This document shows, piece by piece, positions 4,268-29,901 of a DNA stretch of 29,901 bases. Position 1 is the stretch's first letter; every line of letters starts with the position of its first letter. Position numbers and translations under genes: made by a program. The stretch comes from a virus, in the IMG/VR virus record IMGVR_UViG_3300038312_000093, positions 1 to 29,901 of that record; one strand, given 5' to 3'. The notes below the pieces were generated by a model. The model was not told the origin of the DNA. It made no database searches and was given only the letters and a program-made list of their open reading frames with translations.

Positions 4268-4275
4268 GAGAAAAA

Positions 4276-5643: not shown

Positions 5644-6238
5644 GAGAAGCATGTACAGAGCAAACTGGCTAAGAAGCCAACGAATAAATTTTATGTGGGA
5701 CATAATAAAATCCGTTCCAGAACCAAAACGCATCCTAGTAACATCAGAAGAAGACATTGATGTTATTAACGTATTATCCACAAGATTACAAAATGTGGAG
5801 TACGAAATGCTAATCACTCACCCGGAGCAACAAAAAAACAAGGCAAAATCAAATTTTACACATGTACCCATATCAACAACCAAACGTTATGACATCATCG
5901 TGATTTTAGGCGGTTTTAACACGGACAATGACATGGAAAACAAAATCAAAACCGTAAGCAAACTACTTGCCAAGAATGGCATATTGTACTTCGAAGCCCC
6001 AAATCATTTAGCGTATTCGATCGGAGCATCCGGGTACAGGACAATTGCCGGAAACGGAACACAAAAAGGCTGGCACTTGACCCGAGTGGAATGGTCTGAC
6101 ATATTGCAAAAAACAGGACTAACGACTATCAGACAGTATAGCGGTCATGCTAGTGTTTGGCAGTTTGTATGGACACTCGAAAAAGAGAAAGAAACCAAAA
6201 AAGATGCTAAAATGGAGAAGTCAAAGAGCGAAAAGTAA
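5636..6238 (+). CDS. class I methyltransferase-fold protein with a degenerate SAM-binding loop (function unknown)
   Basis: RYDIIVILGGF and LLAKNGILYFEAPN resemble methyltransferase motifs II/III. The motif I position reads KRILVTSEED and has no glycines. The C-terminus is K/E-rich. An alternative start at ATG 5651 lies behind AGGAG. Confidence 0.4.
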   Translation: MNRRSMYRANWLRSQRINFMWDIIKSVPEPKRILVTSEEDIDVINVLSTRLQNVEYEMLITHPEQQKNKAKSNFTHVPISTTKRYDIIVILGGFNTDNDMENKIKTVSKLLAKNGILYFEAPNHLAYSIGASGYRTIAGNGTQKGWHLTRVEWSDILQKTGLTTIRQYSGHASVWQFVWTLEKEKETKKDAKMEKSKSEK

Positions 6239-7022: not shown

Positions 7023-7069
7023 ATATGTGTAGTTCAACAAAACCAACAAAAGACAAGGAGATAAACAAA

Positions 7070-7576
7070 ATGAACACCAACATCAACAACACCCCGAACA
7101 CCCTCACCCCAGACATGATGAAGAAAGCCGGCGCAGTGGAAACAGCCCTACACCAAGCTAAAGCCAACCGCAAACCATATTCAGTTCTGTACAATCCAGA
7201 GTTTGACACTTATTACGTGGAGGCATGGTACCCCGGTCAATTCGAAGCGGCAAAAGAAAACTACTTCCTAACGGTATCAGACTCAGACGCAAGACAACTA
7301 TCAAATGACCCACTAGCCGGAAAGCTACCATTAGCGGACGGAGCGATCAAGATAGCAAGCGTCCCTCAGTTTTATCAAAGCCCCACTTGCATTTACTATA
7401 AGGGAGCACATTACGATTGGCGAAAGGTCAAAAGCCAAGTAGACGAAACCATACTCGCCACAGTGCACAAAGCATTACCCACTAGAAACCAAAACAACCT
7501 GCAATGCTTATTCGACTTATACGTTGGAGCTCACGCATTCGTTCACGGAGAAGAATTCGTCATCAAGCTCTGGTAA
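7070..7576 (+). CDS. hypothetical early protein (168 aa)
   Basis: ATG 7070 lies behind AAGGAGATAAACAAA. The track start at 7025 would lie within or just downstream of the promoter -10. No recognisable motif. Confidence 0.6.
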   Translation: MNTNINNTPNTLTPDMMKKAGAVETALHQAKANRKPYSVLYNPEFDTYYVEAWYPGQFEAAKENYFLTVSDSDARQLSNDPLAGKLPLADGAIKIASVPQFYQSPTCIYYKGAHYDWRKVKSQVDETILATVHKALPTRNQNNLQCLFDLYVGAHAFVHGEEFVIKLW

Positions 7577-7643: not shown

Positions 7644-8078
7644 ATGAACACCAACAAAGAAATCACAAGAGACCAACTAGAAAACGCAATCCGATACGTA
7701 GCAGATAATTCATACGAATTAGAGTTTGCACTATATACTATCAAGTATCTGAAAAGAGAAAGCGATATTTACCCGACCGCATACACCAGCCCGAAAAGCC
7801 AGTTAGATAGAATGAAAGGTGGAACATTATTATTCGTTATGAGTGATGATGAAAGAAATAAATACGAGAAGCATTTTAGCCAAGTTAGTAAGTCTTTTGG
7901 AAGCAGATTCGAAAACATGGTAAATAGCTTACGAAAAGTTTGGGGACAAGACGCACCAAGAAAGCTGATACCTAACTGGTCAGACGATAACCTAGAAACA
8001 CAAAACCAAGTATTAGGCGAATACTTGTTTGACCAATTCATCAAACGAGTTTATCAAGAATGTAAAGCAAAGAACTAA
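7644..8078 (+). CDS. hypothetical early protein (144 aa)
   Basis: ATG 7644 has the same 41-nt initiation region as the 7070 gene. No recognisable motif. Confidence 0.6.
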   Translation: MNTNKEITRDQLENAIRYVADNSYELEFALYTIKYLKRESDIYPTAYTSPKSQLDRMKGGTLLFVMSDDERNKYEKHFSQVSKSFGSRFENMVNSLRKVWGQDAPRKLIPNWSDDNLETQNQVLGEYLFDQFIKRVYQECKAKN

Positions 8079-8087
8079 CACAAGAAC

Positions 8088-8107
8088 GCCCGGGTGAAAA
8101 CCCGGGC
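8088..8107 (+). promoter_or_regulatory. intergenic GC-rich stem-loop (CCCGGG core)
   Basis: GCCCGGG (8088-8094) pairs with CCCGGGC (8101-8107) around the loop TGAAAA. ACACCAACACC and the RBS follow. Confidence 0.55.
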
Positions 8108-8132
8108 ACACCAACACCAAAGGAGAAACAAC

Positions 8133-8411
8133 ATGAAAGACAACACCAACCAACCAACAGAAAAAACCCTTGACGACGAGATTTTAGAGGACTTCGCAGA
8201 ACTAGAAGTAATATTAGGAGAGATGCTCCAAGAAATCTTTGACAAAGGCAAAGAGGTCATCAACAACTTCGACAATGCCGATATACCAACATTCGTGCAA
8301 ATGAAAGACGAACTAGCTGAAAGACTTGAAGAGTATTGCGGTGTCACCCTGTTTTATGCAACGATCAACAACATCATGAAAGAAGAAGATGAGGAGGAAA
8401 ACAAAGAGTAA
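8133..8411 (+). CDS. small highly acidic early protein (92 aa)
   Basis: ATG 8133 lies behind AAAGGAGAAACAAC. By my count it has about 27 D/E against 8 K/R. The C-terminus is KEEDEEENKE. Confidence 0.6.
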   Translation: MKDNTNQPTEKTLDDEILEDFAELEVILGEMLQEIFDKGKEVINNFDNADIPTFVQMKDELAERLEEYCGVTLFYATINNIMKEEDEEENKE

Positions 8412-8427
8412 AAAAAACAATTAAATA

Positions 8428-8460
8428 GACACGCCGGGAAATTAGAAAACCCGGCGTGTC
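8428..8460 (+). promoter_or_regulatory. intergenic stem-loop (11-bp stem, no U-tract)
   Basis: GACACGCCGGG (8428-8438) pairs with CCCGGCGTGTC (8450-8460) around an 11-nt loop. AAACCAACAAAC and the RBS follow. Confidence 0.6.
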
Positions 8461-8483
8461 AAACCAACAAACAGGAGAGTAAC

Positions 8484-9347
8484 ATGAATGACAGTATTGT
8501 AACACAAACAAAAAAACAAGGAGAAAACAACATGCAAACCCCAAACCTTACAAAAGCCCTAATAGGCTTCCAAAAAGCGGTAAAACCCGCAAAATTCGAC
8601 GCTAATAACCCATACTATAACAGCCGATATGCCAGTTTAGGCGAAATCATCAACACCGTCAAAAGCGAAGCCGGAAATCACGGATTGACATGGATACAGC
8701 TACCGATATCAGAGGGAGACCGAGTAGGCGTTAGAACAATCCTAATGCATGAAAGCGGAGAGCAAATTGAGGATAGCATTTTGGTACAGTTACCGCCAAC
8801 GTATGTAACCAACAGCAAAGGCATTGACGTACTACAAAACCAAATCCAAGAGACCGGTAAGTACATCACATATCTGAGACGTTACGCCCTTGCAAGCGTA
8901 TTCGGGTTATATGCAGAGGAAGATAATGACGGAAACCAAAGAGACGGGAACCCAAGACAACCAAAGCAAACCAGTAGCAACAGACAGCCCGCAAGCACGC
9001 AAACTCCAACCAAAAAAACTGAAAAACCAAAAATTGAAAGACCGTACAAACCAACTGACTTGAAAAAACTTTTGATGGAACACGCCCCAAAACTGGCATC
9101 AGCAACCGCCAGTCAACAAAAAGAGGTTGTGGCAGTATTATCTCAGTACGCCGGAGATGATGAAACAAGACACAAAGTACAAAACTACCTGTTTGGCGCA
9201 GAGTCTATCAAAGACGTAAACGGTCGCATCATTGCAGCAGCGCACAGGTGGTTAGACGCAGAATGGAACAGCCAAGAGAAAGTATACCTGTTACCAGACG
9301 TTCAAGCAGAGGAGCTATTCCTCGTGATTGAGGAAGCCACCAAATGA
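8484..9347 (+). CDS. erf: ERF-family single-strand annealing recombinase
   Basis: The pattern matches ERF proteins: LIGFQKAVKPAKFDANNPYYNSRYASLGEI...HESGE...QETGKYITYLRRYALASVFGLYAEEDNDGN. The C-terminal half is low-complexity. An alternative start at ATG 8532 also has an AAGGAG RBS. Confidence 0.8.
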   Translation: MNDSIVTQTKKQGENNMQTPNLTKALIGFQKAVKPAKFDANNPYYNSRYASLGEIINTVKSEAGNHGLTWIQLPISEGDRVGVRTILMHESGEQIEDSILVQLPPTYVTNSKGIDVLQNQIQETGKYITYLRRYALASVFGLYAEEDNDGNQRDGNPRQPKQTSSNRQPASTQTPTKKTEKPKIERPYKPTDLKKLLMEHAPKLASATASQQKEVVAVLSQYAGDDETRHKVQNYLFGAESIKDVNGRIIAAAHRWLDAEWNSQEKVYLLPDVQAEELFLVIEEATK

Positions 9348-10096
9348 CAGCAAAGCGGATAATCCGAGTTGCCAACCGTGAACAGTTTGTAGTCGTCCTG
9401 ACAAAGACAGCACAGGACGACACACTGTCATGGAAAGCAAGAGGAATATTAATTTACTTGCTATCGTTACCGGACAACTGGCAGATATACGTGAGCGACC
9501 TAATCAACAGAGCCCCGGATAAAGAAACATCAGTCCGGACTGGATTGAAAGAACTTGAAAAAGCCGGGTACCTAACCAAGCAAAGAACCAGAGACAGCAA
9601 AGGCAAAATAACAGGTACAGAGTGGATAATCCACGAGAAAGCAGAAGTCCAGCCATATGGTGAAAATCCACATGTGGAAAAACCACACGTGGAAAACCCA
9701 CATGTGGAAAATCAAGGACTAATTAATAAGAACTTAACTAAAGAAGTATCTGAAACTAAAAATAACTTAACAAAAGATACGCCCTCGCTTCGCTCAGGCG
9801 GTCACCGAGAAATGGTTCAAGCGATTGAAAACCTAACATTGTTGGACATGAAAATCAGAAGCAACGCCGGTCAAATAGTACGCCTTGCCAAAGAACTATT
9901 GACAGCCGGTTACACCCCGGAACACGTCACCCAGTTTGGCGAGCTATGGAAAACGGATTGGCGTTACAAGAAAAACCAAGCACCGCCGAGCCTAACAGTA
10001 TTACGTCAGGAAATTGGCAAAGTCAAAAACCACAAACCCAAACCCGCCAACGACCTAGAAGCATTCAGGAAATTGGCACGAGAACAGCAAAGCTAA
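9344..10096 (+). CDS. replication initiator / replisome organiser (winged-helix N-terminal domain, DnaD-like class)
   Basis: ATGA overlap with erf. The N-terminus (FVVVLTKTAQDDTLSWKARGILIYLLSLPDNWQIYVSDL...GLKELEKAGYL) is typical of phage replisome-organiser wHTH domains. It sits between erf and ssb and contains iteron-like repeats. Confidence 0.6.
   Translation: MTAKRIIRVANREQFVVVLTKTAQDDTLSWKARGILIYLLSLPDNWQIYVSDLINRAPDKETSVRTGLKELEKAGYLTKQRTRDSKGKITGTEWIIHEKAEVQPYGENPHVEKPHVENPHVENQGLINKNLTKEVSETKNNLTKDTPSLRSGGHREMVQAIENLTLLDMKIRSNAGQIVRLAKELLTAGYTPEHVTQFGELWKTDWRYKKNQAPPSLTVLRQEIGKVKNHKPKPANDLEAFRKLAREQQS
9662..9712. repeat. three and a half tandem 15-bp iteron-like repeats (candidate origin)
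   Basis: The copies are GAAAATCCACATGTG, GAAAAACCACACGTG, GAAAACCCACATGTG and a partial GAAAAT. Each carries a CCACATGTGG-type palindrome. An A+T-rich stretch (9715-9780) with two AACTTAAC copies follows. Confidence 0.6.
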
Positions 10097-10108
10097 GGAG
10101 AAAAAAAG

Positions 10109-10492
10109 ATGTATCACGAACTAACATTAATTGGAAGACTAGGGCGCGACCCGGAAGCACGTTACACAAAAGACATGCACGAATCCAGCAGTTTCAGCGT
10201 AGCGGTCAATTCGTATGGAGAAGATAATCCTGTCATATGGATAAACGTCACCGCATGGCGTGAAGCCGCCCAGTTCTGCAACAAGCATTTGAGAAAAGGT
10301 GACATGGTTTATATCGCCGGCACATTAAGAGCAGACAAGGAAACCGGCGCACCCCGAGTTTACTCCAAACGAGATGGCACGCCCGGCGCACAGTTCGAAA
10401 TCAACGCCCGGAACGTCATCGGCTTGGTATACGGACAGGAAAAAACACCCCAAAACCAAGAGGAACAGTGGGACGACGATATTCCATTCTAG
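10109..10492 (+). CDS. ssb: single-stranded DNA-binding protein
   Basis: The OB-fold N-terminus (LTLIGRLGRDPEARYT) is followed by a disordered Q/E-rich tail and the canonical acidic tip DDDIPF. RBS is AAGGAG. Confidence 0.9.
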   Translation: MYHELTLIGRLGRDPEARYTKDMHESSSFSVAVNSYGEDNPVIWINVTAWREAAQFCNKHLRKGDMVYIAGTLRADKETGAPRVYSKRDGTPGAQFEINARNVIGLVYGQEKTPQNQEEQWDDDIPF

Positions 10493-10549
10493 CAAGAACA
10501 GGAATTGGAATATACCCCAGAATTTTAGCTTAGATAAGGAGATAAGGAC

Positions 10550-10966
10550 ATGACAACACCAACAACAACCAAAGACCAAGAATTGGAAGAAATCTGCGTA
10601 GAATACTTCCGCCAGAACTTGCACATTGAATACTTAAACCATGAACGAGAAACCGCTATCAAGCTGGCGATTCCGAAAGAGATTCAAGAAACCATTGACA
10701 CCATTGATGCCACTTACGACCAGAAAATCAAAGACGAAATGGAGAAAATCAAACAGACGGAAAACAACATCAAAAACGCCGTTCTAGAACGCAAAGAAAC
10801 ATTCAAGATTAATGGTGTGACAGCGGTCTACAACAAAGGGCGTGTATCGTGGGACGACAAGTTCCTGAAAGGCGTTGCGGTCAAAATGCCGGTAATCCTA
10901 AAGGGACGGTCAGAGGGCAAGCCATACGTAAGTCTCAAAATTACAAAATTGGAGCAACCATGCTAG
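10550..10966 (+). CDS. hypothetical protein (138 aa, coiled-coil-rich)
   Basis: RBS is AAGGAGATAAGGAC. The N-terminal half is charged and helical. No confident family. Confidence 0.55.
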   Translation: MTTPTTTKDQELEEICVEYFRQNLHIEYLNHERETAIKLAIPKEIQETIDTIDATYDQKIKDEMEKIKQTENNIKNAVLERKETFKINGVTAVYNKGRVSWDDKFLKGVAVKMPVILKGRSEGKPYVSLKITKLEQPC

Positions 10967-12286: not shown

Positions 12287-12772
12287 ATGAAAGCAACAAA
12301 ACAGGACACCAAAGCAAAGCAAAGCCTAATCAACGCAATCGCTAAAGCGGTCAAGATGACATACGAACAGTATAAAGACCATTCGGTCATTGCAAGGTCA
12401 TTCGGGAGCAGTACCTTTGACATCATCGAAAGCCATAGCGAACAACAGACCCAGAACCCAGACACCTACACCTGTACCGTAACAGAAGACGACGTTATTT
12501 ATTTTGCACAAGCAGTTGACGTTGATAACAGACAGGACATGTACTATGAAATCGCTGTCATCATTGCCAACAATCTGCACAAGTACAGAAAACCAGACAC
12601 GGTTGTCATCAATGGAAGAACCATTGATTGGGAAGTCGCATTACAGTACATGGACGATGAAATCAGAGAAGCAGTCGCAAGCTATGAGACTATCACCTCC
12701 AACCAAGAATTCGTAGACGAGTACGCCAAGCAACACTATTACGATTTCAAAGAGGTTTTTGAAATCAACTAA
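12287..12772 (+). CDS. hypothetical protein (161 aa)
   Basis: RBS is AAAGGAGAAACC. The C-terminal ALQYMDDEIREAV...NQEFVDEYAKQH resembles a motif I recall in small mobile-element proteins, but I cannot name a family. Confidence 0.6.
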   Translation: MKATKQDTKAKQSLINAIAKAVKMTYEQYKDHSVIARSFGSSTFDIIESHSEQQTQNPDTYTCTVTEDDVIYFAQAVDVDNRQDMYYEIAVIIANNLHKYRKPDTVVINGRTIDWEVALQYMDDEIREAVASYETITSNQEFVDEYAKQHYYDFKEVFEIN

Positions 12773-14064: not shown

Positions 14065-14271
14065 ATGAAAAACCAAGACAACATTGTAGAAAAACTAATA
14101 GCCGGTCAACGAGCAGAGAAAGCCGAGGCGATGGTTGAGCGGATGATTGAGGCAGGCAATCGATTATACGAATTAGCAGAAGAGCTTGATGATTTGGTCG
14201 ATGAGTTTCGCGCCTATCCCGACTTAGTAAGTTGGCGCACGCTCGTTGCCGAGTGGAAGGAGAGGGAGTGA
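14065..14271 (+). CDS. hypothetical acidic helical protein (68 aa)
   Basis: RBS is AGGAGAAACAAC. The protein is E/A-rich. Confidence 0.55.
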   Translation: MKNQDNIVEKLIAGQRAEKAEAMVERMIEAGNRLYELAEELDDLVDEFRAYPDLVSWRTLVAEWKERE

Positions 14272-14750
14272 TGAGCTATTGCAGGTTTTCAAACGCGGAT
14301 GCTTATATTTATGAAGCCGAAGAGGGATTTACTTGTTGCGGTTGTCGTATTGCTGAAAGCGGAATGTTCGTCTGTGAAACAGAATTAGAAATGATTGAGC
14401 ATATCGCACAGCACCGTAAAGCAGGCCATTTTGTGCCTACATACGTAGATGATATGTTGCGCGATGAGGTTTCAGACTACATCGCCACCCTCGAAGCCGA
14501 AGTTGAGGCGTTGCGACCGTATCGGGATGGGTATGACCCGAAAGAGCGGTTGCCTGAAGTAAACAAATATGAGCCGGACACCTCGGTTAATGTTGACGCA
14601 TTAATCCTGACGGCCAGCGGTGTTGTTTTTTGGGGCACGCTATATTACCACTTCGGTAAAAAAGAATGGTTAGGGATTCGAGACAATATGGTAATCCTTC
14701 GCTGGTATCCAGAACTTCCGTATTCAGAAAGCGAGGTGAGAAATGAGTGA
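14271..14750 (+). CDS. hypothetical protein with a Cys/His N-terminal domain and a DUF551-like C-terminus
   Basis: ATG 14271 overlaps the upstream TGA (GTGATGA) and lies behind GGAGAGGGAG. The N-terminus is YCRF...CCGC...HIAQHRKAGHFVP. The C-terminus (ERLPE...ILRWYPELP) resembles DUF551. Confidence 0.55.
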   Translation: MSYCRFSNADAYIYEAEEGFTCCGCRIAESGMFVCETELEMIEHIAQHRKAGHFVPTYVDDMLRDEVSDYIATLEAEVEALRPYRDGYDPKERLPEVNKYEPDTSVNVDALILTASGVVFWGTLYYHFGKKEWLGIRDNMVILRWYPELPYSESEVRNE

Positions 14751-14961
14751 GATTAGCGAAAAGGCGAAAGAGCTTTTGGAGAGCACGGTTAAGAACGCTA
14801 TTGCGTACGGTCAAGAAAAAGGCAACCCTTTTGGGCTTGTAAGTACTTACGAGGCTATGTTCAGGCTTGATAAGAGTGAGCTTGAACACTACATCGCCAC
14901 CCTCGAAGCCGAAAACCGCGCGCTAAGACACTCACTGGAGTTGCGGGAGTGTGAGGAATGA
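14743..14961 (+). CDS. hypothetical protein (72 aa)
   Basis: It overlaps the upstream stop. It shares the YIATLEAE peptide and a 26-nt repeat with the upstream gene. Confidence 0.5.
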   Translation: MSEISEKAKELLESTVKNAIAYGQEKGNPFGLVSTYEAMFRLDKSELEHYIATLEAENRALRHSLELRECEE

Positions 14962-15311
14962 ACAAAAAAGAAACAGAAGAAAAAATAGTTAACCAGTTCG
15001 AAAAAACAGTCAACCAGTTTGATAATGCAGTTTATAACGAGCGTATCAACAGAGGAAAAAACGGGTACAGTTACCACATGGAAGAGTATTACAGAACTAG
15101 AGAAAAAATACTCCAAACAGGAAACATGTTATCAAAAACAATTGACTTGCTAGAAAAAACAAAGCAAAACCTAAGTAAGGCATTATTGACTTGTGAGTTA
15201 CTTGTTCCACACAGCGAAGCGTTTCAAACCTTACTCAAAAGACGCATTGGACAAATTGATGAACTCGTAAAAGAAGCCGGTCAAGAGTTTAACTATAATT
15301 GGAAACCATAG
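14958..15311 (+). CDS. hypothetical coiled-coil protein (117 aa)
   Basis: ATGA overlap with the upstream gene. The protein is K/E-rich and helical. Confidence 0.5.
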   Translation: MNKKETEEKIVNQFEKTVNQFDNAVYNERINRGKNGYSYHMEEYYRTREKILQTGNMLSKTIDLLEKTKQNLSKALLTCELLVPHSEAFQTLLKRRIGQIDELVKEAGQEFNYNWKP

Positions 15312-15321
15312 GAGAGAATAC

Positions 15322-15876
15322 ATGGAAAAGAGCTACGTTCTAGAACGCAACCAAACCACGATTAGACTAAAAATAGCTGATGAAATTTTAGACCGGTTCG
15401 TGTTATTGTTCGAAATTGCCAGAGATACACAATTCACAATCGGCGACTTGTTAGAGGAAGTTATCCAAGCACACAGCCCACTATTCAGCAAGCAACAGAT
15501 TGTAAATTACATTGCAGGACATTTAAGAGTATCACCCGGGACATTGTACGACTATCACCGTATCGCAATGTTATGGACACCAGACTGGAGAGCGCAATAT
15601 CAAAATCTTGACTGGACGTTTTACCGCATGATTGACCCAACAGACCCGGACGATATCGAGCTACTTGAAACCGCCATTGATGAGGGCTGGAACGTCACCA
15701 CGCTGAAAGAGGAAAAGTACCCTATCCTAAAATCAGCAGACAGCCTGTTAGGACGCATAATATCACTATGCCGAAAAGCAATTGAAGCAACAGACATTGA
15801 TGAATTTGACCGGAACGCAATTGTCAAATTCCTTGATGAAATAGAAACAACAGAGACAGGAGTAAACAATGAGTAA
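15322..15876 (+). CDS. hypothetical protein with a possible HTH segment (184 aa)
   Basis: RBS is GGAGAGAATAC. QIVNYIAGHLRVSPGTLYDYHRIA looks HTH-like. No confident family. Confidence 0.5.
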   Translation: MEKSYVLERNQTTIRLKIADEILDRFVLLFEIARDTQFTIGDLLEEVIQAHSPLFSKQQIVNYIAGHLRVSPGTLYDYHRIAMLWTPDWRAQYQNLDWTFYRMIDPTDPDDIELLETAIDEGWNVTTLKEEKYPILKSADSLLGRIISLCRKAIEATDIDEFDRNAIVKFLDEIETTETGVNNE

Positions 15877-16237
15877 ACAAGAAAACCCATGGATTGACGC
15901 AAGTAAAAAACCGTTATTCCAACTGAGCGAAGCAAGAGACACAAGAATCATCAACAACAATGGAGAACGTCAAAGAACAGAGGACATCATCATCCTGTAC
16001 TTATTCGTTGACGAGCTGAAACCCGGAGCATCAATTGATACAGTCATGTGGCGTTGGAGTCTTGGCGTTTATTATATTGACGAAATGAGGTATCGAAGCG
16101 ATGACGGAACTGAAATCAAACTTGAAAATAGTGTTTGGAAATGGAGCAAACCTAACATGCAACAACATCAAGTGTATATTACAGCGTATATGCTAGTTCC
16201 AGAAGTAGACGGTATTGATTGGGATTTTATACCATGA
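15869..16237 (+). CDS. hypothetical protein (122 aa)
   Basis: It overlaps the upstream stop. The N-terminal NPWIDASKKP is weakly DUF551-like. Confidence 0.5.
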   Translation: MSKQENPWIDASKKPLFQLSEARDTRIINNNGERQRTEDIIILYLFVDELKPGASIDTVMWRWSLGVYYIDEMRYRSDDGTEIKLENSVWKWSKPNMQQHQVYITAYMLVPEVDGIDWDFIP

Positions 16238-16461
16238 GAAAATTAGCGTTTTCAAACAGAGCAGAATTCAAGAATTGGCGGTCATACAATTGCGATAAAT
16301 GTAAGAAAGCATGGACACCAAAAAGCAAAGATTTTATAGGCGATTGCCAAATAGAATTCCTACTCGATACAAGTCAACGTATTACAGAAAAGCAAATCAA
16401 AATCACCAACATTGGAACACAGGAGCGTTGTTCGTTATTCGAAGCACGAACCGATGAGTAA
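16234..16461 (+). CDS. hypothetical protein (75 aa)
   Basis: ATG 16234 forms an ATGA overlap with the upstream stop. It contains a CDKC pair. Confidence 0.45.
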   Translation: MRKLAFSNRAEFKNWRSYNCDKCKKAWTPKSKDFIGDCQIEFLLDTSQRITEKQIKITNIGTQERCSLFEARTDE

Positions 16462-16471
16462 GTCGGTATAT

Positions 16472-16479
16472 GGTAGAAT
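16472..16479 (+). promoter_or_regulatory. possible extended -10 promoter (TGgTAGAAT)
   Basis: TGGTAGAAT lies in the 54-nt gap before the VRR-NUC gene. There is no convincing -35. Confidence 0.25.
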
Positions 16480-16515
16480 GTAAAAAGCAAGTCAAATGTT
16501 AGGAGAGAATATTTT

Positions 16516-16881
16516 GTGAGTGAACATAGCGAACAAGTAGCCCTATTCGAAGCATTACAAATCCATTCAAAGAAAGAGCCCATGTTACAGTGGGCTTTTG
16601 CCATTCCAAACGGATTTTATTCAACGCCGGCACAAAAAAGAAAGATGCGAAATGAAGGATTGAAACCCGGAGTATGGGATATATTCATACCAATACCGAC
16701 ACACCGTTACAACGGAATGTTTATTGAAATGAAATTCGGAAGAAATACACTCTCAACACCACAAATTGAATTTTACAAATTCGCCAAAGAACACTATTGC
16801 ATGGTAGTTGCATACACTTGGTTAGAAGCCTATAAAGCAATATGCGATTACCTTGAAATAGAGCCATATTTTGAAATGTAA
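16516..16881 (+). CDS. VRR-NUC domain nuclease
   Basis: GTG start 8 nt after AGGAGAG. SEQVALFEAL...AIPNG...GLKPGVWDIFIPIP...GMFIEMKFGRNTLSTPQIEF matches the E..V / PNG / G.PD / E.K...L...Q layout of VRR-NUC. Confidence 0.75.
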   Translation: MSEHSEQVALFEALQIHSKKEPMLQWAFAIPNGFYSTPAQKRKMRNEGLKPGVWDIFIPIPTHRYNGMFIEMKFGRNTLSTPQIEFYKFAKEHYCMVVAYTWLEAYKAICDYLEIEPYFEM

Positions 16882-16890
16882 GGAGAAAAC

Positions 16891-17409
16891 ATGAATATTC
16901 CGCAATGGCTTAAAAACATGGAAAGGTCAAAGCCACAATCCGAAGAACAGCTAATTGAATTAGCGATACAAATTGCGAAGCGAAATGTACAAAATAATAC
17001 AGGCGGTCCATTCGGAGCAGCAATTTACGATAAAAACAAAAAACTACTAAGCGTGGGAGCAAACCTTGTAATAAGAAACAACTGTTCGTTACTCCACGCA
17101 GAAGTTGTAGCAATTCTGCTGGCACAGAAAAAACTTAAGACATATGACCTAAGTGCGGTAGGTGCAGTTCTAGCAACATCAGCAGAGCCATGTATTATGT
17201 GCCAAGGAGCAATTTACTGGTCAGGAATAACAAAAGTTATTTATGCAGCTAGTACACAAGATGTCGAAAAGATAGGTTTTAAGGAAGGGAATAAATTACC
17301 AATCGAAAAGGCGTTGAAAAACATCAGCATTGTTCAACTAGCGCAAGAAAAAGCAATCCAAGAAAGCTTAAATATTTACAAAGGACCAATATACAATGCA
17401 GATATATGA
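16891..17409 (+). CDS. CDA-fold zinc deaminase, guanine-deaminase-like
   Basis: The motifs are HAE (aa 69-71), PCIMC (aa 100-104) and an N-terminal GGPFGAAIYDK. A C-terminal helical extension resembles B. subtilis GuaD more than dCMP deaminase or TadA. This is from recollection only. Confidence 0.7.
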   Translation: MNIPQWLKNMERSKPQSEEQLIELAIQIAKRNVQNNTGGPFGAAIYDKNKKLLSVGANLVIRNNCSLLHAEVVAILLAQKKLKTYDLSAVGAVLATSAEPCIMCQGAIYWSGITKVIYAASTQDVEKIGFKEGNKLPIEKALKNISIVQLAQEKAIQESLNIYKGPIYNADI

Positions 17410-17521
17410 AAATAGAATTATAGGGTCTAAAAAAGTAAAAATTGATGAAATTTTATTCAATCCACAAAACTGGCGCACACATCCACACTTTCAAGAAAAG
17501 GCATTAGAAAGGAAAAAACCC
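17396..17521 (+). pseudogene. remnant of a ParB-like nuclease-domain N-terminus, in frame with the downstream transporter
   Basis: KVKIDEILFNPQNWRTHPHFQEKAL matches the ParB-N pattern (I..L.pNP.N.R.H...Q...L). It then breaks off after ~40 aa into the transporter ORF. Confidence 0.5.
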
Positions 17522-18190
17522 ATGAAAAACAAAGAAAGAAACATAGTCCTTATAATTGTCACCTTAATCGGAATATACATTGCTTCGCAGGCGATAGCGG
17601 ACGTTGCAGCGACCCGAATGATTCAAATCGGAAAAATCGTATTACCCGGTGGCGTACTCATGTTCGCATTAACTTTCACTTTGCGAGACTTTATTCATAA
17701 GCGATTAGGTAAAAAATGGGCACGAGCAACAGTCATCATGGCAGCAGTAATGAATGTCTTCCAACTAGCGTACCTGTATTTTATCGGCAAGCTAGACGCG
17801 CCTGTATTTTATGGTTTCAATGAAGAATGGCGAAATATCTTTGCTATTGTCCCAGCTGTGTCAATCGCCAGTATTGTAGCTGAAGTATCCAGTCAGCTAA
17901 TTGATACCGAAGTGTATCAATTCATTATGGACAAATATCCAAAATTACCGCAGATATTCAGAGTATTAATATCAAACTTCATCGCCTTACCATTCGACTC
18001 GTTAATCTTTGCGTTACTCGGTTTTGTTATTTTGCCACAATTGTTTGGCAGTACAAGTTACACATTTATTGACGCAATAGCATTGACATCAGGACAGATT
18101 ATTTACAAAGCGATAGTGACCATTTTATCTGCTCCAGCCATTTATTTAATCAAAGACGAACAGATAAAGGTGTCCTTAATGACAGAATAG
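17522..18190 (+). CDS. yhhQ: VUT-family transporter, YhhQ-like (queuosine/7-deazaguanine precursor transporter)
   Basis: 222 aa from ATG 17522, with ~6 hydrophobic helices. By-eye collinearity with E. coli YhhQ: FALTFTLRDFIHKRLGKKWAR, SQLIDTEVYQF, ALPFDSLIFALLGF and IIYKAIVTILSAPAIY. Confidence 0.8.
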   Translation: MKNKERNIVLIIVTLIGIYIASQAIADVAATRMIQIGKIVLPGGVLMFALTFTLRDFIHKRLGKKWARATVIMAAVMNVFQLAYLYFIGKLDAPVFYGFNEEWRNIFAIVPAVSIASIVAEVSSQLIDTEVYQFIMDKYPKLPQIFRVLISNFIALPFDSLIFALLGFVILPQLFGSTSYTFIDAIALTSGQIIYKAIVTILSAPAIYLIKDEQIKVSLMTE

Positions 18191-18194
18191 TGGC

Positions 18195-18569
18195 ATGACA
18201 ACACCAAAAAAAGAGCGACGAAAGAAATACACCAACGCTGAAATCAAAAATGCGTTAATAAAAACGAATGGTTATATCACCTTAGCCGCTCGAATGTTAG
18301 GTTGCGAACCCAAAACCATTTATAGACGACTGGACAAAACGGAAGCATTAAGACAAACCCTCAAAGACATCAGAGAACAAGAACTTGATATCACGGAGCA
18401 GAAGCTACACCAAGCGATTTTGAACGGAGAGGCATGGGCTATCACCCTAAAGCTAAAAACACTTGGCAAAAGCCGTGGATATACAGAGCGAACAGAACTA
18501 ACAGGGCAAGGAAATAAGCCTATAACTTTTGTACTCCAACGCCATGAACCAGAACCAGAAGAAGATTGA
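18195..18569 (+). CDS. terS: terminase small subunit (N-terminal HTH)
   Basis: NGYITLAARMLGCEPKTIYRRL is HTH-like and a coiled region follows. It is immediately upstream of and overlapping terL. Confidence 0.65.
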   Translation: MTTPKKERRKKYTNAEIKNALIKTNGYITLAARMLGCEPKTIYRRLDKTEALRQTLKDIREQELDITEQKLHQAILNGEAWAITLKLKTLGKSRGYTERTELTGQGNKPITFVLQRHEPEPEED

Positions 18570-19701
18570 CCTATACCCAGCGCAATATGATTTTGTGGTT
18601 TGCGAAGATAACCTAACCGGTTTTGTTGCCGGTATCGGAGCAGGAAAAACGTATGCCGGAGCATTGAAATCCGCAATATACTCCAACCGTCCCGGGTTAG
18701 GAATGATAGTTGCCCCAACCTATGGCATGCTTAGGGACAGCACGCTTAGAACGTTCATGGATTTAGCCGGAGAAGCAATCGTTGACGAAGAACGGTCAAG
18801 TATGACATTATTCACCACAGGTGGCGGTGAAATCCTGTTACGGTCAGCAGACAACCCTGAAAAACTAAGAGGTCCAAACCTGAACTGGATATGGATTGAC
18901 GAGGGTGGACTAACAAAAGAACTCACATGGCAAATCTGCATTGGTCGTTTACGTGCCGGCGGTAAGTTTGGTCATCTTTGGGTCACCACCACACCCAAAG
19001 GCAAACGGAATTGGGTTTACAAAATATCAAAAGAAATGAAAGTATTCCGGGCAACAACTTTTGACAATCCGTTCACCTCACAAGCATGGCAACACCAGTT
19101 GACCCAATCCTACGTTGATGACTTCCTACGTCAAGAAGCGTACGGAGAATTCGTATCGTTCGAGGGTTTGATATACTCTCAATTCCAACCAGAACACATT
19201 GTCAGACGAGACCTGACACTGCTTGGAGAATTCGACCTTGGCGTTGATGAAGGTTACACCAACCCGGCGGTCATACTCAAAGTTTACAGTGACAATGACG
19301 GTGGCTACCACATTGCAGAGGAGTGGTATGAACGTGGCAAATTACAATCCGAACAAGTCGACAACGTAGTAAGAATGGCTGACAACCAAGACCCGGACAT
19401 CGGAGTAGATAGTTCAGCCAAAGGGCTAATCGCAGCCATTCGAAATGAGGGATTAAGAGCCAGAGGAGCGACTGGTCGTGTCTTACAGGGAATAAAAAAC
19501 ATTCAAGAGCTGCTGGCAAATGGTAAAATCACAGTAGACCCGTCTTGCGTAAGAACCATTGCCGAGTTTGAAAGCTACCAATGGAAACCCGGAACAGACG
19601 AGCCACAAAAAGAGAATGACCACGCTATGGACGCTTTAAGGTACGCTATCAACAAAAAGAAAGACAGCACACCACAAAAAGCACAGCAAAGGAGATACTA
19701 A
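18544..19701 (+). CDS. terL: terminase large subunit
   Basis: Walker A is GIGAGKT and Walker B is WIWIDEG. C-terminal nuclease-type acidic motifs are present (DEGYTNP, DHAMDALRY). The ATG at 18544 is preferred over the TTG at 18529; neither has a strong RBS. Confidence 0.85.
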   Translation: MNQNQKKIDLYPAQYDFVVCEDNLTGFVAGIGAGKTYAGALKSAIYSNRPGLGMIVAPTYGMLRDSTLRTFMDLAGEAIVDEERSSMTLFTTGGGEILLRSADNPEKLRGPNLNWIWIDEGGLTKELTWQICIGRLRAGGKFGHLWVTTTPKGKRNWVYKISKEMKVFRATTFDNPFTSQAWQHQLTQSYVDDFLRQEAYGEFVSFEGLIYSQFQPEHIVRRDLTLLGEFDLGVDEGYTNPAVILKVYSDNDGGYHIAEEWYERGKLQSEQVDNVVRMADNQDPDIGVDSSAKGLIAAIRNEGLRARGATGRVLQGIKNIQELLANGKITVDPSCVRTIAEFESYQWKPGTDEPQKENDHAMDALRYAINKKKDSTPQKAQQRRY

Positions 19702-19702
19702 A

Positions 19703-21016
19703 ATGAACCCAGACGTGAAATTATGTTTTGACCTAATCACCAAAAACGCCAGCGAAGCGAACTTGTACTTTAACTATTACAATGGCAAACACCAGCTAAC
19801 GTTTTCAAGCCAAAAAATGAGAGAGATATTCAAGACATCCGAATTGCAATTTACTCAAAACTGGTGCGCAGCAGTAATCGAAAGTACAGCGGACAGGTTG
19901 ACGTTGCAGGGTTGGGATAATCCAACAGAAGAACTTGACGACAGACTTGACACGTTTTACACCAACCGCAAGTTGCAAACACTAAGTCGCCAAGTCCACA
20001 AAGACGCAATCATCACCGGCAACGGATATGTTTTACTTGACATTGTGGACGGAGAGGTCATGCTATATCGCAATGACCCAAGAACAATCTGTGTCATTTA
20101 TTCTGAGGAACGACCTGATGAAAAACGAGTTGCAGCCAAACTATACAAAGTCGAAAACACCCGAAAATTAATCCTGTACTATCCAGACTATATCCAAATA
20201 TACGAAGCATCAGCTAGGAGCGAAAATACCGCTAATTTCAAGCTTACAGAGGAACTTAGAACGGACGGTATTCCACTTGTCCACTTTAGAGCTATGCCGG
20301 AGCTAAGAAACATCATTCCATTGCAAGACGCTATCAACAAGATTTACAGCGACATGATGGTGGTTAGTGAGTTCAATGCTTTCAGACAACGTTACATTGT
20401 TACCAACGCTGATATTTCAAGCCTTGAAGCAAGCCCTTCGACTATCATGCGAATACCAAGAGGGGAAACAGACGGAATGGAAAATACCCAAGTGGGCGAA
20501 TTCAGCGCAGCTGATATCGGACAATACCTTGACACTATCGACAAACTAACGAACGCAATCGCTATTATCAGCAGAACGCCAAAGTATTATTTTATGAGTA
20601 CAGGAGCGAACGTATCAGGTGAAACGCTTATGGTCATGGAAGCACCGCTAGTCAAAAAAATAAAGCAATTGCAAGAAAGCTTCGGTCAGTCATGGCTTGA
20701 CTTGGCACGTTTAGCAGTAGTCGATGATGTTGCAACAGTCGTAACTTGGGAACGTCCTGAAAGCACGCAACCATTATCAATCGCACAAGCGCAACAGGCG
20801 CAAGTCAGTATTGGTATTCCACTCGTTACCGTTTTACGCAAAGACGGTTGGAGCAAGGACGAAATCGACCAACTAAAGCAAGACCGTATCGAGGAACAAA
20901 AGTGGCGTTTTGACAGTTCAGAATTGGCATTACAGGCAGCTATGCTAAGGGAGCGTCAAGCCAACAACCCACTTGAACCAACCCTAACCCAAACTGAAAT
21001 TGGAGAAGCCGAATAA
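19703..21016 (+). CDS. portal protein (SPP1 gp6-like)
   Basis: 437 aa directly after terL. RBS is AAAGGAG. The N-terminal YYNGKHQL...FTQNWCAAVIES..DRL is typical of SPP1-type portals. Confidence 0.85.
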   Translation: MNPDVKLCFDLITKNASEANLYFNYYNGKHQLTFSSQKMREIFKTSELQFTQNWCAAVIESTADRLTLQGWDNPTEELDDRLDTFYTNRKLQTLSRQVHKDAIITGNGYVLLDIVDGEVMLYRNDPRTICVIYSEERPDEKRVAAKLYKVENTRKLILYYPDYIQIYEASARSENTANFKLTEELRTDGIPLVHFRAMPELRNIIPLQDAINKIYSDMMVVSEFNAFRQRYIVTNADISSLEASPSTIMRIPRGETDGMENTQVGEFSAADIGQYLDTIDKLTNAIAIISRTPKYYFMSTGANVSGETLMVMEAPLVKKIKQLQESFGQSWLDLARLAVVDDVATVVTWERPESTQPLSIAQAQQAQVSIGIPLVTVLRKDGWSKDEIDQLKQDRIEEQKWRFDSSELALQAAMLRERQANNPLEPTLTQTEIGEAE

Positions 21017-26812: not shown

Positions 26813-27105
26813 TTAAACTCGGCATGACAGTAACAGAACTATTATCAAGAATATCAAGCCGAGAATTGACAGAATGGATGTCTTTTTTTGAATTAGAACC
26901 GTGGGGCACAGAGACCGAACTGCTCGGACACGCTATCACCAGCGCAACCATAGCCAACGTGAACCGGGACACCAAGAAAAGACCTAACCCATTCACAGCA
27001 AATGATTTTATACCAGAATTCGACCGGTACAAAGCAACTGAGAACCAAGCCCTAAAAATCCGTCAAATCAACGCCATGTTTGGCGGAAAGGAGATAAGCG
27101 AATGA
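26773..27105 (+). CDS. -1 frame extension of the tail assembly chaperone (T-like part of the G-T fusion, predicted ~227 aa)
   Basis: The -1 frame reads LREGSRRFYFRLALKLGMTVTELL... into track ORF 26824-27105. The ATG at 26824 has no RBS. The stop overlaps the tape measure start (ATGA). Confidence 0.7.
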   Translation, partial: LREGSRRFYFRLALKLGMTVTELLSRISSRELTEWMSFFELEPWGTETELLGHAITSATIANVNRDTKKRPNPFTANDFIPEFDRYKATENQALKIRQINAMFGGKEISE

Positions 27106-29901
27106 GTACAATTGCAGATTTAGCGGTAAAGCTAGGACTTGACTCTAGTGGTTTTAGTAAAGGCGTTGGACAAGCGCAAGGTGATTTATCCAAACTTGAA
27201 CAATCAGTCAACAAAGTTCGTGAAGCCGGTAAGAAAATATCAGACGTTGGCAAAGCTATTTCTATTGGCGTTACTGCACCTGTTACCGCCGCAAGTATCG
27301 CACTTTTGAAGTTTGGTTCAGACGCTCAAAAATCACTCCAAATTGAAAAAGCATTTAATGATATTGCGTCCTCAGCCGGACGAATGGGAAGAGAAGTTTT
27401 GGCAGGACTGAAAATGTCAAGCCAAGGACTAATCACCAACACCGAATTAATGAAATCGTTTAACCTTGCTGCCAACCTAGTCAGCAAGGATTTTGCACTT
27501 AAGCTACCAGAAGCCATGAAATACCTTGGCAAAGTATCAGCTGCAACCGGTCAAGACATGAGTTATCTATTGGATAGTCTTGTCAAAGGTGTTGGTAGAT
27601 TATCGCCAATGATTTTAGACAACCTAGCGGTGCAAGTAAGCCTAACAGACGCTTATGATAAATACGCTAAAAGCATTGGCAAAACAGCAGACGAACTAAC
27701 CAAAGCAGAACAACAAACCGCAGTCATGAATGAAACCATGCGCCTATTAAAACGCAACACCGCAAGCATGGGAGATGAATTCGGTACAACCGGCGACAAA
27801 ATCAAAACCGCAATGGGTAACGCAAAAGACGCAATTGGAAAACAACTTGCCCCAGCACTAAAAGACGCAGGAGAAAGAATCATTCCGCTTGTCAATCGTT
27901 TTGCTGAATTATTCAAAGAGGGCAACTCACTGCACCCGGTTATTACAGTGCTTGGAGACACTGTCAACAAACTAATAGGACACGCAGAAAACCTTGTAAA
28001 CTGGCTAAGCCAACTTAACCCACAAGTGGTAGAGAATACAGTCAAATTTACCCTGTTCTTAGCTGTCCTAGGACCAACCTTGCTAATTGTTGGAAAACTT
28101 ACAAAAGCGTTTTCTGGATTTATGTCCGTATTCGGGAAAATAGGAACATTATTCAAGAACACAATTATTGCGTTTGAGGGTGGCAACCTTGTATTAGCAT
28201 CGACAGGGTTAGCCGCCAAAGGCGCAGCAACCGGCGTCAAAACCCTATCTGTATCGCTTAGCAAATTAGCCATGTTCGGCGGTTGGGGATTATTAGTAGG
28301 CGGTGCAATCGCACTCGGAAAATGGCAAAAAGAGCTTGAAAACACTAGTAACACCGTTGCAGATAGCATGAGAGATATTGACGGTGTTTTAATCAAAAGC
28401 GGACAAAGCTTTGATGATTGGCGTGAAAGTGTCAACAACGCATTAAAAGACATAGAGCTTCCAAAAGGACTTACAGAATGGGATATGCAAGTTGCATTTA
28501 TCAAAACCCAAATGGAAGACCTTGTAAAAGCAGGCGTAATCACCGCAGACGAAATGGAAAGCCTATACTGGCGCATGCGTAACCCCGGTTCAGGTGGTGG
28601 CATGGCAGTTATGAACTACGTCCACGGTTTGGTAGAGGGATATGAAACCCTAAAGGAAACCATGTGGAGTGTTGTTCCGGCAATGAAAGCGTATGATGAC
28701 GCTATCGACTACCAAGAGGGTTTAGTCGGTGTTGGACGGACAGCAGAAGAATTAGAAAAAGTTCGTGACAACGCAGAGGAAGCCACAAGCGCAGCCGCAG
28801 AACTAGCCGCGGAATTACAATCATTTACCGTTCAAGTAGATGACGTTACAAGCCTAACAAAAAACTTCGGGAGTATCGTTTCTTTAGCGGAAAGCTACAC
28901 CACAGAACTTGAAAATATTGCAAAGGCGCAAGAGCGAATTAAAGAGCTAGAACCGTTCGAAGATACCGGCGGACGGATTGACGGTGTTTGGATGTCAGCA
29001 GCGAAAGTCAAAGAAGAGCTGGAAAACTTGCGTGGTGAAGTATCAAAGAGCGAAGAAGCCATGCAACGTATGGCAGACCAAATGACCTTAAACATGCTAC
29101 AAGCTACTATTGCAATCGGTGGCGTCACACAGGCAGAAGCAGAAGCATATTTCAAGATGGCAGTTGATATGGGCGTCATCAGTCAAGATGCAGCAGATAA
29201 AGCAATGGAAGCCTATGGCAATGCAGTAGACACTATCAATGACTATGTAGTAGAAACAAAAACCGGCATAGTAGAAGCAAGCGCAGAACAGTACTGGCGT
29301 GTTATCCGAGACATTGAAAGTCAACAGTTTCAGGACAAAATCGCTGAATTTATTGCAGAGGCAGAACAATTCGATGAGACTTGGACAGCCAGAGACGCCT
29401 TAGAATTCGGGCAAAAAGTTGCTGATACATTATTAGAAACCGGTCAGTTTGGAGAGGATTTCAGCGCAATTGACGCATTAGAATTCCTTGGAAAAACCAT
29501 TCCAGTTGAATTGAAAAACGCCGCAATCGCACAAGACAATTTGGACAAATTCCAAAACTTCGAGTTTATTCCAAAATGGATAGACTTCGTACTTGGCGAT
29601 ACATCAGAAGTCGAGGGATACAATCCACCAACCCGAACCGGAACTGTAAATTATCAGCTAGGCAATACTCCAACTTGGAATCCACCGTCTTACGGTCCGA
29701 CACTAACACCAAGAGCAACAGGCGGTAGAGCAATTGCAGACAGCGTATACCTTGTAGGCGAAAGAGGTCCAGAACTATTTATTCCGGACGTGTCCGGAAA
29801 CGTTGTTCCGAACTGGCAACTTGACGTATCAAGCACATCATCGTTTGATGAAAGAGCATTGGCTCGGGCTGTCGCAACCGCCATGAGAGAGGTATACCAA
29901 G
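27102..29901 (+). CDS. tail tape measure protein (N-terminal 933 codons; continues at 1-177, about 959 aa in total)
   Basis: I translated the frame from ATG 27102 to the window end and found no stop. It has an N-terminal helical region, a central hydrophobic/G-rich segment (LFLAVLGPTLLIVGKL...GGWGLLVGGAIALG) and a conserved C-terminal YLVGERGPELFIP. It is missing from the track only because it has no stop inside the window. Confidence 0.9.
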   Translation, partial: MSTIADLAVKLGLDSSGFSKGVGQAQGDLSKLEQSVNKVREAGKKISDVGKAISIGVTAPVTAASIALLKFGSDAQKSLQIEKAFNDIASSAGRMGREVLAGLKMSSQGLITNTELMKSFNLAANLVSKDFALKLPEAMKYLGKVSAATGQDMSYLLDSLVKGVGRLSPMILDNLAVQVSLTDAYDKYAKSIGKTADELTKAEQQTAVMNETMRLLKRNTASMGDEFGTTGDKIKTAMGNAKDAIGKQLAPALKDAGERIIPLVNRFAELFKEGNSLHPVITVLGDTVNKLIGHAENLVNWLSQLNPQVVENTVKFTLFLAVLGPTLLIVGKLTKAFSGFMSVFGKIGTLFKNTIIAFEGGNLVLASTGLAAKGAATGVKTLSVSLSKLAMFGGWGLLVGGAIALGKWQKELENTSNTVADSMRDIDGVLIKSGQSFDDWRESVNNALKDIELPKGLTEWDMQVAFIKTQMEDLVKAGVITADEMESLYWRMRNPGSGGGMAVMNYVHGLVEGYETLKETMWSVVPAMKAYDDAIDYQEGLVGVGRTAEELEKVRDNAEEATSAAAELAAELQSFTVQVDDVTSLTKNFGSIVSLAESYTTELENIAKAQERIKELEPFEDTGGRIDGVWMSAAKVKEELENLRGEVSKSEEAMQRMADQMTLNMLQATIAIGGVTQAEAEAYFKMAVDMGVISQDAADKAMEAYGNAVDTINDYVVETKTGIVEASAEQYWRVIRDIESQQFQDKIAEFIAEAEQFDETWTARDALEFGQKVADTLLETGQFGEDFSAIDALEFLGKTIPVELKNAAIAQDNLDKFQNFEFIPKWIDFVLGDTSEVEGYNPPTRTGTVNYQLGNTPTWNPPSYGPTLTPRATGGRAIADSVYLVGERGPELFIPDVSGNVVPNWQLDVSSTSSFDERALARAVATAMREVYQ
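29805..29901. repeat. terminal overlap, copy 2 (identical to 1-97)
   Basis: Direct comparison with bases 1-97. Confidence 0.95.

Follow-up and report, generated by a model that had tools for sequence, protein, structure and literature searches.

Probable remnants of a phage 7-deazaguanine salvage module: a guanine deaminase and a YhhQ-type transporter on either side of a deletion

Why would a small phage genome encode a guanine-deaminase-like enzyme almost next to a YhhQ-type transporter for 7-deazaguanine precursors, and yet lack the enzymes that make such precursors or place them in nucleic acid? The pair lies in IMG/VR virus record IMGVR_UViG_3300038312_000093 (positions 1 to 29,901; the whole stretch of 29,901 nucleotides is referred to here as the window). 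An earlier note, made from the letters of the window alone, had proposed both open reading frames (ORFs), and both were recovered exactly where it placed them. Comparison with sibling phages suggests an answer to the question: the deaminase and the transporter are very probably the two surviving ends of a 7-deazaguanine salvage module from whose middle 1,534 bp, with a gene for a DpdA-like transglycosylase, have been deleted. As a finding, the pairing in the window is therefore an ordinary one, namely what a deletion has left of a system whose type is already known. A guanine deaminase, however, recurs within phage 7-deazaguanine clusters and is absent from the published lists of their parts, which rest on cultured phages.

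A probable deletion between the deaminase and transporter genes

The closest sibling of the window phage is contig L001, whose flanking DNA is ~97-99% identical. Its gene order is VRR-NUC, deaminase (7834-8352), ParB-like (8339-9070, 243 amino acids (aa)), DpdA-like (9067-9912, 281 aa) and YhhQ (10001-10669). Stop and start codons overlap at both the deaminase/ParB-like and the ParB-like/DpdA-like junctions, a tight coupling of the three genes that fits a shared task. In a blastn alignment with L001, the window is 98.6% identical as far as base 17506 and 96.9% identical from base 17505 onwards, with L001 8450-9983 skipped. The skipped segment comprises codons 38-243 of the ParB-like gene, the whole dpdA-like gene and the 3′ remnant of a methyltransferase gene. 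On the two sides of the junction, the deaminase differs from the L001 copy by one codon and one residue, and the transporter is 97-98% identical to those of the DpdA-carrying siblings on two IMG/VR contigs. The sources of DpdA-carrying contigs are a 'fermentation metagenome' (SRR1562000) and an IMG sample.

This arrangement overturns two proposals of the earlier note. The transporter had been taken for an orphan, whereas in L001 the ParB-like and DpdA-like genes lie exactly between it and the deaminase. A ParB remnant between the two window genes had been noticed and read as a hint that they were acquired separately. The remnant is real, since by tblastn its 37 residues match the N-terminal end of the L001 ParB-like protein (243 aa) with 100% identity, but it was left behind when the deletion took out the linking genes. 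The deletion also places the stub in frame with yhhQ, and the resulting 264-aa product is annotated by gene callers in L003, another assembly of the same variant.

If the missing 1.5 kb were an artefact of assembly, the real genome would carry dpdA, and at this mosaic hot spot at least three variants do exist. The same junction is nevertheless found in assemblies L003 and L004, a SPAdes contig of 29,859 bp at a coverage of 169 and a MEGAHIT contig of 29,923 bp, both of circular-genome length and 100% identical to the window where they overlap it. The junction also retains an open reading frame, and the window closes with a 97-bp overlap. Given the same junction from two assemblers, we consider an artefact extremely improbable. 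A phage lineage can thus lose its DNA-modification enzyme yet still assemble at high coverage.

A second sibling, L002, carries a different version of the cassette, in the order VRR-NUC, ParB-like (245 aa), DpdA-like (275 aa), class-I S-adenosylmethionine-dependent methyltransferase (274 aa) and YhhQ, without a deaminase. Because L001 keeps the last ~66 nt of an L002-type methyltransferase gene, it is likely that an L002-like cassette was replaced by the deaminase together with a different ParB-like and a different DpdA-like gene, and that the window strain then lost the ParB-like/DpdA-like pair. The L002 methyltransferase itself (9162-9986, between the DpdA-like gene and yhhQ) matches Methyltransf_23 with an E value of 6.4e-14; it is not of the DUF3109-type DpdM family and could make a different methylated 7-deazaguanine.

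The missing gene, a predicted transglycosylase, and the ParB-like gene beside it

The earlier note had stated that the window genome is without DpdA or tRNA-guanine transglycosylase (TGT), FolE and QueC/D/E, and this held in every search. Tblastn of the window with both sibling DpdA-like proteins gave a best E value of 0.17. A six-frame scan with hidden Markov models (HMMs) purpose-built from phage clusters for DpdA (two subfamilies), QueC, QueD, QueE and FolE returned only noise, with E values of at least 0.02 overall and at least 0.65 for DpdA, and a Pfam search of the window found no DpdA/TGT, FolE, QueC, QueD or QueE. DpdA in combination with a source of base is present in siblings L001, L002 and L257; the window has the transporter only.

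The sibling DpdA-like proteins (275-281 aa) match phrog_887, 'queuine tRNA-ribosyltransferase' (E 3.6e-21 for L001 and 3e-26 for L002), and are not recognised by the Pfam (TGT), NCBIfam or PADLOC models. Since a sequence search against PDB chains gave no match either, fold comparison was used. The AlphaFold model, built with 56 homologs (predicted local distance difference test score (pLDDT) 88), is a TIM barrel whose top PDB match is the archaeosine tRNA-guanine transglycosylase 1j2b (E 2.5e-4). The viral models that it matches include a number of phage 'queuine tRNA-ribosyltransferases', and a weaker match at rank 32 (E 3.7e-3) is to a protein of Cellulophaga phage phiST, a phage for which DpdA3 has been described (PMC10516641). 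Residues D62-S63-G64, D119, H198 and D217 are invariant in the family, and the D62/D119/H198/D217 pattern parallels Asp95, Asp130, His181 and Asp256 of Salmonella DpdA (PMC10164549), which supports the DpdA identity. The neighbourhood of the family agrees in kind: among 81 viral loci with a DpdA of the window type, a ParB-like gene lies directly upstream in 73, a QueE-like gene is present in 66 and a QueD-like gene in 55. Sequence and model together lead us to predict that the gene missing from the window encodes a DpdA-type DNA-guanine transglycosylase.

The ParB-like protein encoded upstream of it in the siblings scores 18.6-22.8 bits against ParB_N, below the Pfam cutoff of 26.3, and matches phrog_620 (ParB-like family) at 3e-18. 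The bacterial DpdA cannot carry out its exchange without the ParB-like ATPase DpdB (PMC10164549), and a ParB-superfamily gene beside a phage dpdA has been noted before in mycobacteriophage CRB2 (PMC6392294).

Deprived of dpdA and most of the ParB-like gene, the window genome alone would no longer be able to put 7-deazaguanines into its own DNA, and the deaminase and transporter would be intact leftovers, either decaying or keeping a side benefit. The phage DNA would still be modified if a transglycosylase were supplied in trans, from the host (a bacterial DpdA or TGT), as in one reading of the earlier note, or from co-infecting siblings that carry DpdA, although we know of no tRNA TGT that acts on DNA. 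Public data do hold DpdA-carrying and DpdA-lacking variants of the same phage, and bacterial dpd systems exist (PMC10164549), but phage CAjan lost its modification when dpdA was deleted (PMC7544227), and we regard such supply in trans as highly improbable.

The surviving genes and guanine deaminases beside DpdA

Of the two genes that the deletion spared, the transporter was correctly assigned by the earlier note to the YhhQ/VUT family. It passes the thresholds of Pfam Vut_1 (PF02592; E 7.6e-24, 85.2 bits against a cutoff of 27.2) and of the NCBIfam equivalog TIGR00697, 'queuosine precursor transporter' (60.6 bits against a cutoff of 50.95). It resembles E. coli YhhQ (COG1738) in length and in having about six hydrophobic segments (six or seven by a Kyte-Doolittle scan, a crude method), but differs in belonging to a phage-borne clade with no more than 61% identity outside its own lineage. 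The closest homologs outside the lineage are phage genes that lie 3′ of ParB-like and DpdA-like genes, in one case with QueC too, and directly upstream of terminase genes, as in the window. From its family membership, the transporter is predicted to import preQ0/preQ1-like bases. Elsewhere, in an unrelated phage (L006 4692-7961; also L007 and L008), three Vut_1 paralogs (255, 248 and 213 aa) and a Cupin_2 gene stand in a row between a 447-aa DpdA-like gene and a guanine-deaminase-like gene. Three such paralogs side by side suggest import of several different bases by transporters with diversified substrates.

The deaminase matches Pfam dCMP_cyt_deam_1 (E 2.7e-21, 75.8 bits against a cutoff of 25). 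In a sequence search of solved structures the best match is NE0047 of Nitrosomonas europaea (2g84, E 3.2e-28), followed by the B. subtilis guanine deaminase GuaD (1wkq, E 6.3e-18), and TadA structures trail NE0047 by 20 orders of magnitude (E 1e-7 to 1e-8). All of the top 12 PDB matches of the AlphaFold model (pLDDT 92.8, with lower confidence for the last ~20 residues) are NE0047 chains, with template-modelling (TM) scores of 0.85-0.89 and a root-mean-square deviation of 1.5 Å over 165-172 residues. The zinc site consists of H69-A70-E71 and P100-C101...C104 (the HAE and PCxxC motifs), and GGPFGAAI and the C-terminal extension are present as well. Residues F41, N58, E71, F130 and E132 align with F48, N66, E79, F141 and E143 of NE0047, and C101/C104 with its zinc cysteines; in NE0047, Phe48 and Phe141 provide stacking, Asn66 binds O6 and the two glutamates (E79 and E143) act as proton shuttles (PMC9081823). 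The guanine-specific residues and the C-terminal Tyr168 are invariant in 58 relatives.

At ~36% identity, the window enzyme thus shares with NE0047 (2g84, 4hrq) the zinc ligands, both proton-shuttle glutamates, the O6-binding asparagine, both stacking phenylalanines and the C-terminal tyrosine segment. It is shorter (172 aa compared with ~190 aa in NE0047 chains), and its position 131 is Lys (GFKEG) where at least 90% of relatives have Asp (GFDEG). A dCMP deaminase (ComEB) and the tRNA adenosine deaminase TadA were considered and rejected: the curated models score 19.4 bits against a threshold of 219 for ComEB and 50.1 against 150 for TadA, and NE0047 is a far better match. As the earlier note had proposed, sequence and model clearly place the protein among the guanine deaminases of its superfamily, and by analogy it is predicted to convert guanine to xanthine.

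Are such deaminases found with DpdA beyond this lineage? In IMG/VR, a search with a deaminase alignment yielded 80 viral loci, scored as linked if a DpdA-like ORF lay within 8 kb on the same strand. By this measure 37 of the 80 are linked to DpdA; 20 have a Vut_1 ORF, and the link appears in 20 of 41 deaminase clusters defined at 70% identity. The reverse search, from a second DpdA subfamily, found a deaminase at 36 of 80 loci (12 of 32 clusters); a tighter alignment was used here because the 14-sequence gut-phage DpdA alignment was too diverse. Many contigs of 45-70 kb show the typical order DNA polymerase, DpdA, QueC, deaminase, QueD, QueE and FolE, with family identities confirmed, and sometimes add Vut_1 or a small phosphoribosyltransferase-like gene. 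The nearest deaminase homolog outside the lineage on a long contig (P0123, 44% identity) belongs to an unrelated phage and stands at the end of a row of ParB-like, DpdA-like (phrog_887, E 5.5e-39), Vut_1, Vut_1, cupin and Vut_1 genes. The gut-type deaminases belong with B. subtilis GuaD (1wkq, E 6.7e-34), and the window enzyme and that of P0123 with NE0047. Both types being linked to DpdA, two guanine-deaminase subfamilies were recruited independently. Numerous unrelated, uncultured phages thus carry such a deaminase within a DpdA cluster.

Every hallmark motif of a guanine deaminase, the C-terminal tyrosine included, is kept in all 53 distinct linked proteins. Unlike the window enzyme, which sits in a DNA-modification cassette, two cellular homologs that were inspected lie amid unrelated housekeeping genes. 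Because the pattern searches brought up no more than hundreds of DpdA loci among 2.9 million viral contigs, the two genes would be expected side by side by chance in far fewer than one of 80 loci, a rough figure since the searches were limited by pattern. The tie that the earlier note had drawn between the deaminase and 7-deazaguanine metabolism is hence strongly supported, although it runs through DpdA rather than through the transporter alone.

Several further loci show variations on this arrangement. In L085 (7938-10186), a DpdA of the window type is followed ~750 bp downstream by a GuaD-like deaminase of 194 aa; together with L006, this makes two further lineages outside the gut-type clusters with a deaminase near dpdA. 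L103 (2784-4631) and about ten near-identical loci carry tandem DpdA-like genes (307 and 303 aa), with a deaminase ~3.4 kb downstream. In several gut-type DpdA clusters (L094 8494-8880, L121, L104, L139 and L140; cluster C20), the deaminase directly adjoins a ~130-aa phosphoribosyltransferase-like protein (Pribosyltran 22.7 bits, below the cutoff) that might salvage xanthine, guanine or a 7-deazapurine base.

No guanine deaminase was found mentioned as part of phage 7-deazaguanine modification in the literature searched, which did not cover all journals, so that a prior description is possible; the word 'deaminase' occurs nowhere in PMC6884629 or PMC10516641. Among 50,697 deposited phage records, many without annotation, tblastn with two deaminase types gave only weak matches, mostly to unannotated records, and none annotated beside DpdA, which would explain why surveys of deposited genomes missed the link. 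The recurrent guanine deaminase is apparently an undescribed accessory enzyme of phage 7-deazaguanine DNA modification.

What might the deaminase do in an intact module? We propose that YhhQ would import a 7-deazaguanine base and that DpdA, aided by its ParB-like partner, would swap guanine in the phage DNA for the imported base, with free guanine released, as is the case for TGT-type enzymes including DpdA (PMC10164549). The deaminase would turn the released guanine into xanthine, which is without the 2-amino group read by TGT-type enzymes and would not be re-insertable. Salmonella DpdA/DpdB catalyses the exchange of [14C]guanine into DNA, and in TGT-type enzymes an invariant Asp recognises the 2-amino/N1 edge of the base (PMC10164549). 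In a phage that replaces a large fraction of its G, the guanine set free would thus not only be a product but would also compete for the covalent enzyme-DNA intermediate, and its removal would pull the exchange toward the 7-deazaguanine product. The effect should matter most where the precursor is scarce, as in YhhQ salvage. Taken by itself, this guanine-sink mechanism is a serious possibility to which we give slightly less than an even chance; as a joint account of the locus, the deletion remnant and the guanine sink together are moderately likely. Modification levels differ widely among systems, from less than 0.1% up to replacement of every G. If the deaminase does remove the guanine released by DpdA, it could help to explain this spread, and guanine removal would offer a simple lever to raise 7-deazaguanine incorporation in engineered DNA.

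Alternatively, the deaminase could act on a 7-deazapurine (preQ0, preQ1, 7-carboxy-7-deazaguanine or 7-deazaguanine, imported or made by the phage, free or in DNA) and strip its 2-amino group, the outcome being a 7-deazaxanthine-type modification or the conversion of a salvaged precursor, and this would point to an undescribed modified base. The deaminase gene adjoins the transporter gene and lies within preQ0 synthesis clusters, and more and more 7-deazaguanine derivatives are being described from phages (PMC10516641). The ring-modified guanine 8-azaguanine is accepted by NE0047, which is, however, reported to tolerate changes to the guanine scaffold very poorly (PMC9081823). The complete guanine-deaminase residue set in all 53 linked enzymes likewise speaks for guanine itself; moreover, a deaminated base should be a poor substrate for DpdA because TGT-type enzymes read the 2-amino/N1 edge, and no deaminated 7-deazapurine was found in the 7-deazaguanine literature searched. 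We consider action on a 7-deazapurine distinctly unlikely. The more specific proposal that the deaminases of DpdA clusters act on 7-deazaguanine, as a base or in DNA, and so make an undescribed class of DNA modification, 7-deazaxanthine derivatives, is decidedly improbable; were it true, the deaminase-transporter pair of the window would be half of a pathway for a 7-deazaxanthine-type base.

A further alternative detaches both window genes from DNA modification and makes them independent auxiliary metabolic genes, the transporter adding to the host's queuosine precursors for tRNA and the deaminase altering the purine pool, so that the deletion variant would be functional as it stands. Both ORFs are intact, and the variant was assembled at 169x coverage. 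Intactness may, however, reflect a recent deletion, the deaminase being one codon away from the L001 copy; the closest phage relatives of both genes adjoin DpdA, and a tRNA-directed role has no positive evidence. This alternative we judge unlikely.

A number of observations weigh against the favoured account, a deletion remnant whose deaminase had served as a guanine sink. L001 is not the literal parent of the window phage; other mosaic sites differ between them, and the deletion is deduced from the retained ParB stub. The ParB-like protein falls below the Pfam cutoff, and PADLOC gives no DpdB match for it (MTase_II only). The deaminase and transporter are still intact in the deletion strain, as would also be expected of a DpdA-independent function, and the variants differ by too few synonymous and non-synonymous changes for selection since the deletion to be judged. 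About half of the phage deaminase clusters are without DpdA or Vut_1 within 8 kb, and most loci of the first DpdA family are without a deaminase, indicating that the deaminase is an optional accessory and not a core part. The guanine-sink idea draws on gene neighbourhood and enzyme chemistry, and why a deaminase should be needed is not obvious, given that cells already have phosphoribosyltransferases that clear guanine.

The window genome and described 7-deazaguanine systems

The first 97 bases of the window are identical to the last 97 (1-97 and 29805-29901), a terminal overlap that marks the window as a complete circular assembly of 29,804 bp. All convincing genes lie on the plus strand (Table 1), and many small ORFs are of unknown function. 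In all three genome variants (the window, L001 and L002) the VRR-NUC-like gene forms the conserved left border of the variable cassette. The terminase genes on its right are followed by genes for a portal, a MuF-like protein, capsid and tail. All window ORFs of at least 250 aa are assigned to tail, lysis, replication or packaging functions, and PHROGs gave no annotation for the ten remaining small ORFs. A plus-strand frame of ~940 codons, running from near 27102 across the window end into 1-20, is probably the tape-measure gene and is missing from the ORF list because it crosses the window ends. Minus-strand ORFs inside this tape-measure-like region are spurious; one of them (27653-28603, 316 aa) was considered as an integrase or DpdA and rejected, as it has no family match and lies inside the ~940-codon frame.

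Table 1. Features of the window, with positions counted from its first base
Feature	Position	Strand	Remarks
Tail genes and GH25/M23/SH3 endolysin	179-5643	+	
ERF recombinase, replication initiator, single-stranded DNA-binding protein	8484-10492	+	
VRR-NUC-like nuclease	16516..16881	+	Pfam VRR_NUC E 5.7e-5, 23.6 bits, just below the 23.8 cutoff; phrog_824 E 3.8e-28
Predicted guanine deaminase, cytidine-deaminase fold, NE0047 type	16891..17409	+	172 aa, intact
Stub of ParB-like (DpdB-like) gene, first 37 codons	17396..17506	+	ATG overlaps the deaminase end by 14 nt
In-frame fusion ORF from the deletion	17396..18190	+	264 aa: ParB stub, 5-residue linker, YhhQ; predicted ORF
Deletion junction, 1,534 bp missing relative to L001	17506..17507	.	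GGCATTA/GAAAGG (slash, junction), 1-2 bp microhomology
Retained ribosome-binding region of the transporter	17507..17521	+	GAAAGGAAAAAACCC before ATG; identical upstream of yhhQ in L001 and L002
Predicted Vut_1/YhhQ-family queuosine-precursor transporter	17522..18190	+	222 aa, intact
HTH_8 small-terminase-like gene and large terminase	18195..19701	+	Conserved right border of the cassette

Other parts of the genome hold features of separate interest. Two ORFs (12287-12772 and 7025-7576) end in a domain that matches AcrIC5 (a Pfam anti-CRISPR family), with E values of 1.3e-14 (above the cutoff) and 8.7e-5 (below it), respectively. Directly 3′ of the endolysin gene, a 200-aa ORF (5636-6238) gives a borderline Methyltransf_23 match (26.8 bits against a cutoff of 27) and no PHROG match. 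At a second mosaic site (window 14109-15313, L001 5680-6256), L001 has a 285-aa ORF with a weak Lar_restr_allev match, and the window has several small ORFs instead; the early region has a patchwork character. Neither megablast with window 15000-20000 nor tblastn with the transporter matched any of the 50,697 deposited phage records, so that on the basis of these records the phage is without a cultured relative. As to the host, the endolysin gave only a GH25 match of 29% identity in a cyanobacterial metagenome-assembled genome, and the DpdA-carrying sibling is from the 'fermentation metagenome'; from these we infer no host.

Phage 7-deazaguanine systems described so far combine DpdA with preQ0 synthesis or with salvage through YhhQ (PMC6884629, PMC7544227, PMC10516641), and bacterial ones are represented by the Dpd system of Salmonella Montevideo (PMC10164549). 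Like the latter, the sibling phages have a gene for a predicted TGT-fold transglycosylase with a ParB-like gene directly upstream. Unlike it, their ParB-like protein (~245 aa) is closer to the ParB domain of ParB-methyltransferase fusions (phrog_498, PADLOC MTase_II) than to DpdB, and the phage loci are without DpdC and the DpdD-K restriction components. With the phage systems, such as those of 9g and CAjan, there is a likeness in that the DpdA-like transglycosylase gene of the siblings stands next to one for a YhhQ-type transporter, as in CAjan (PMC7544227). The siblings also lack preQ0 synthesis genes, as do the 76 phages termed 'DpdA-only' by Hutinet et al. 2019 (PMC6884629). A guanine deaminase, by contrast, is part of no described version. 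The earlier note had held that a DpdA homolog would make this a known type of system; the lineage does carry a DpdA-like gene, in the siblings, and is of a known type, whereas the window genome itself is without this defining enzyme and is a remnant rather than a member. The lineage is therefore of the already described DpdA-plus-YhhQ salvage type (PMC6884629, PMC7544227), of which the window is a degenerate copy.

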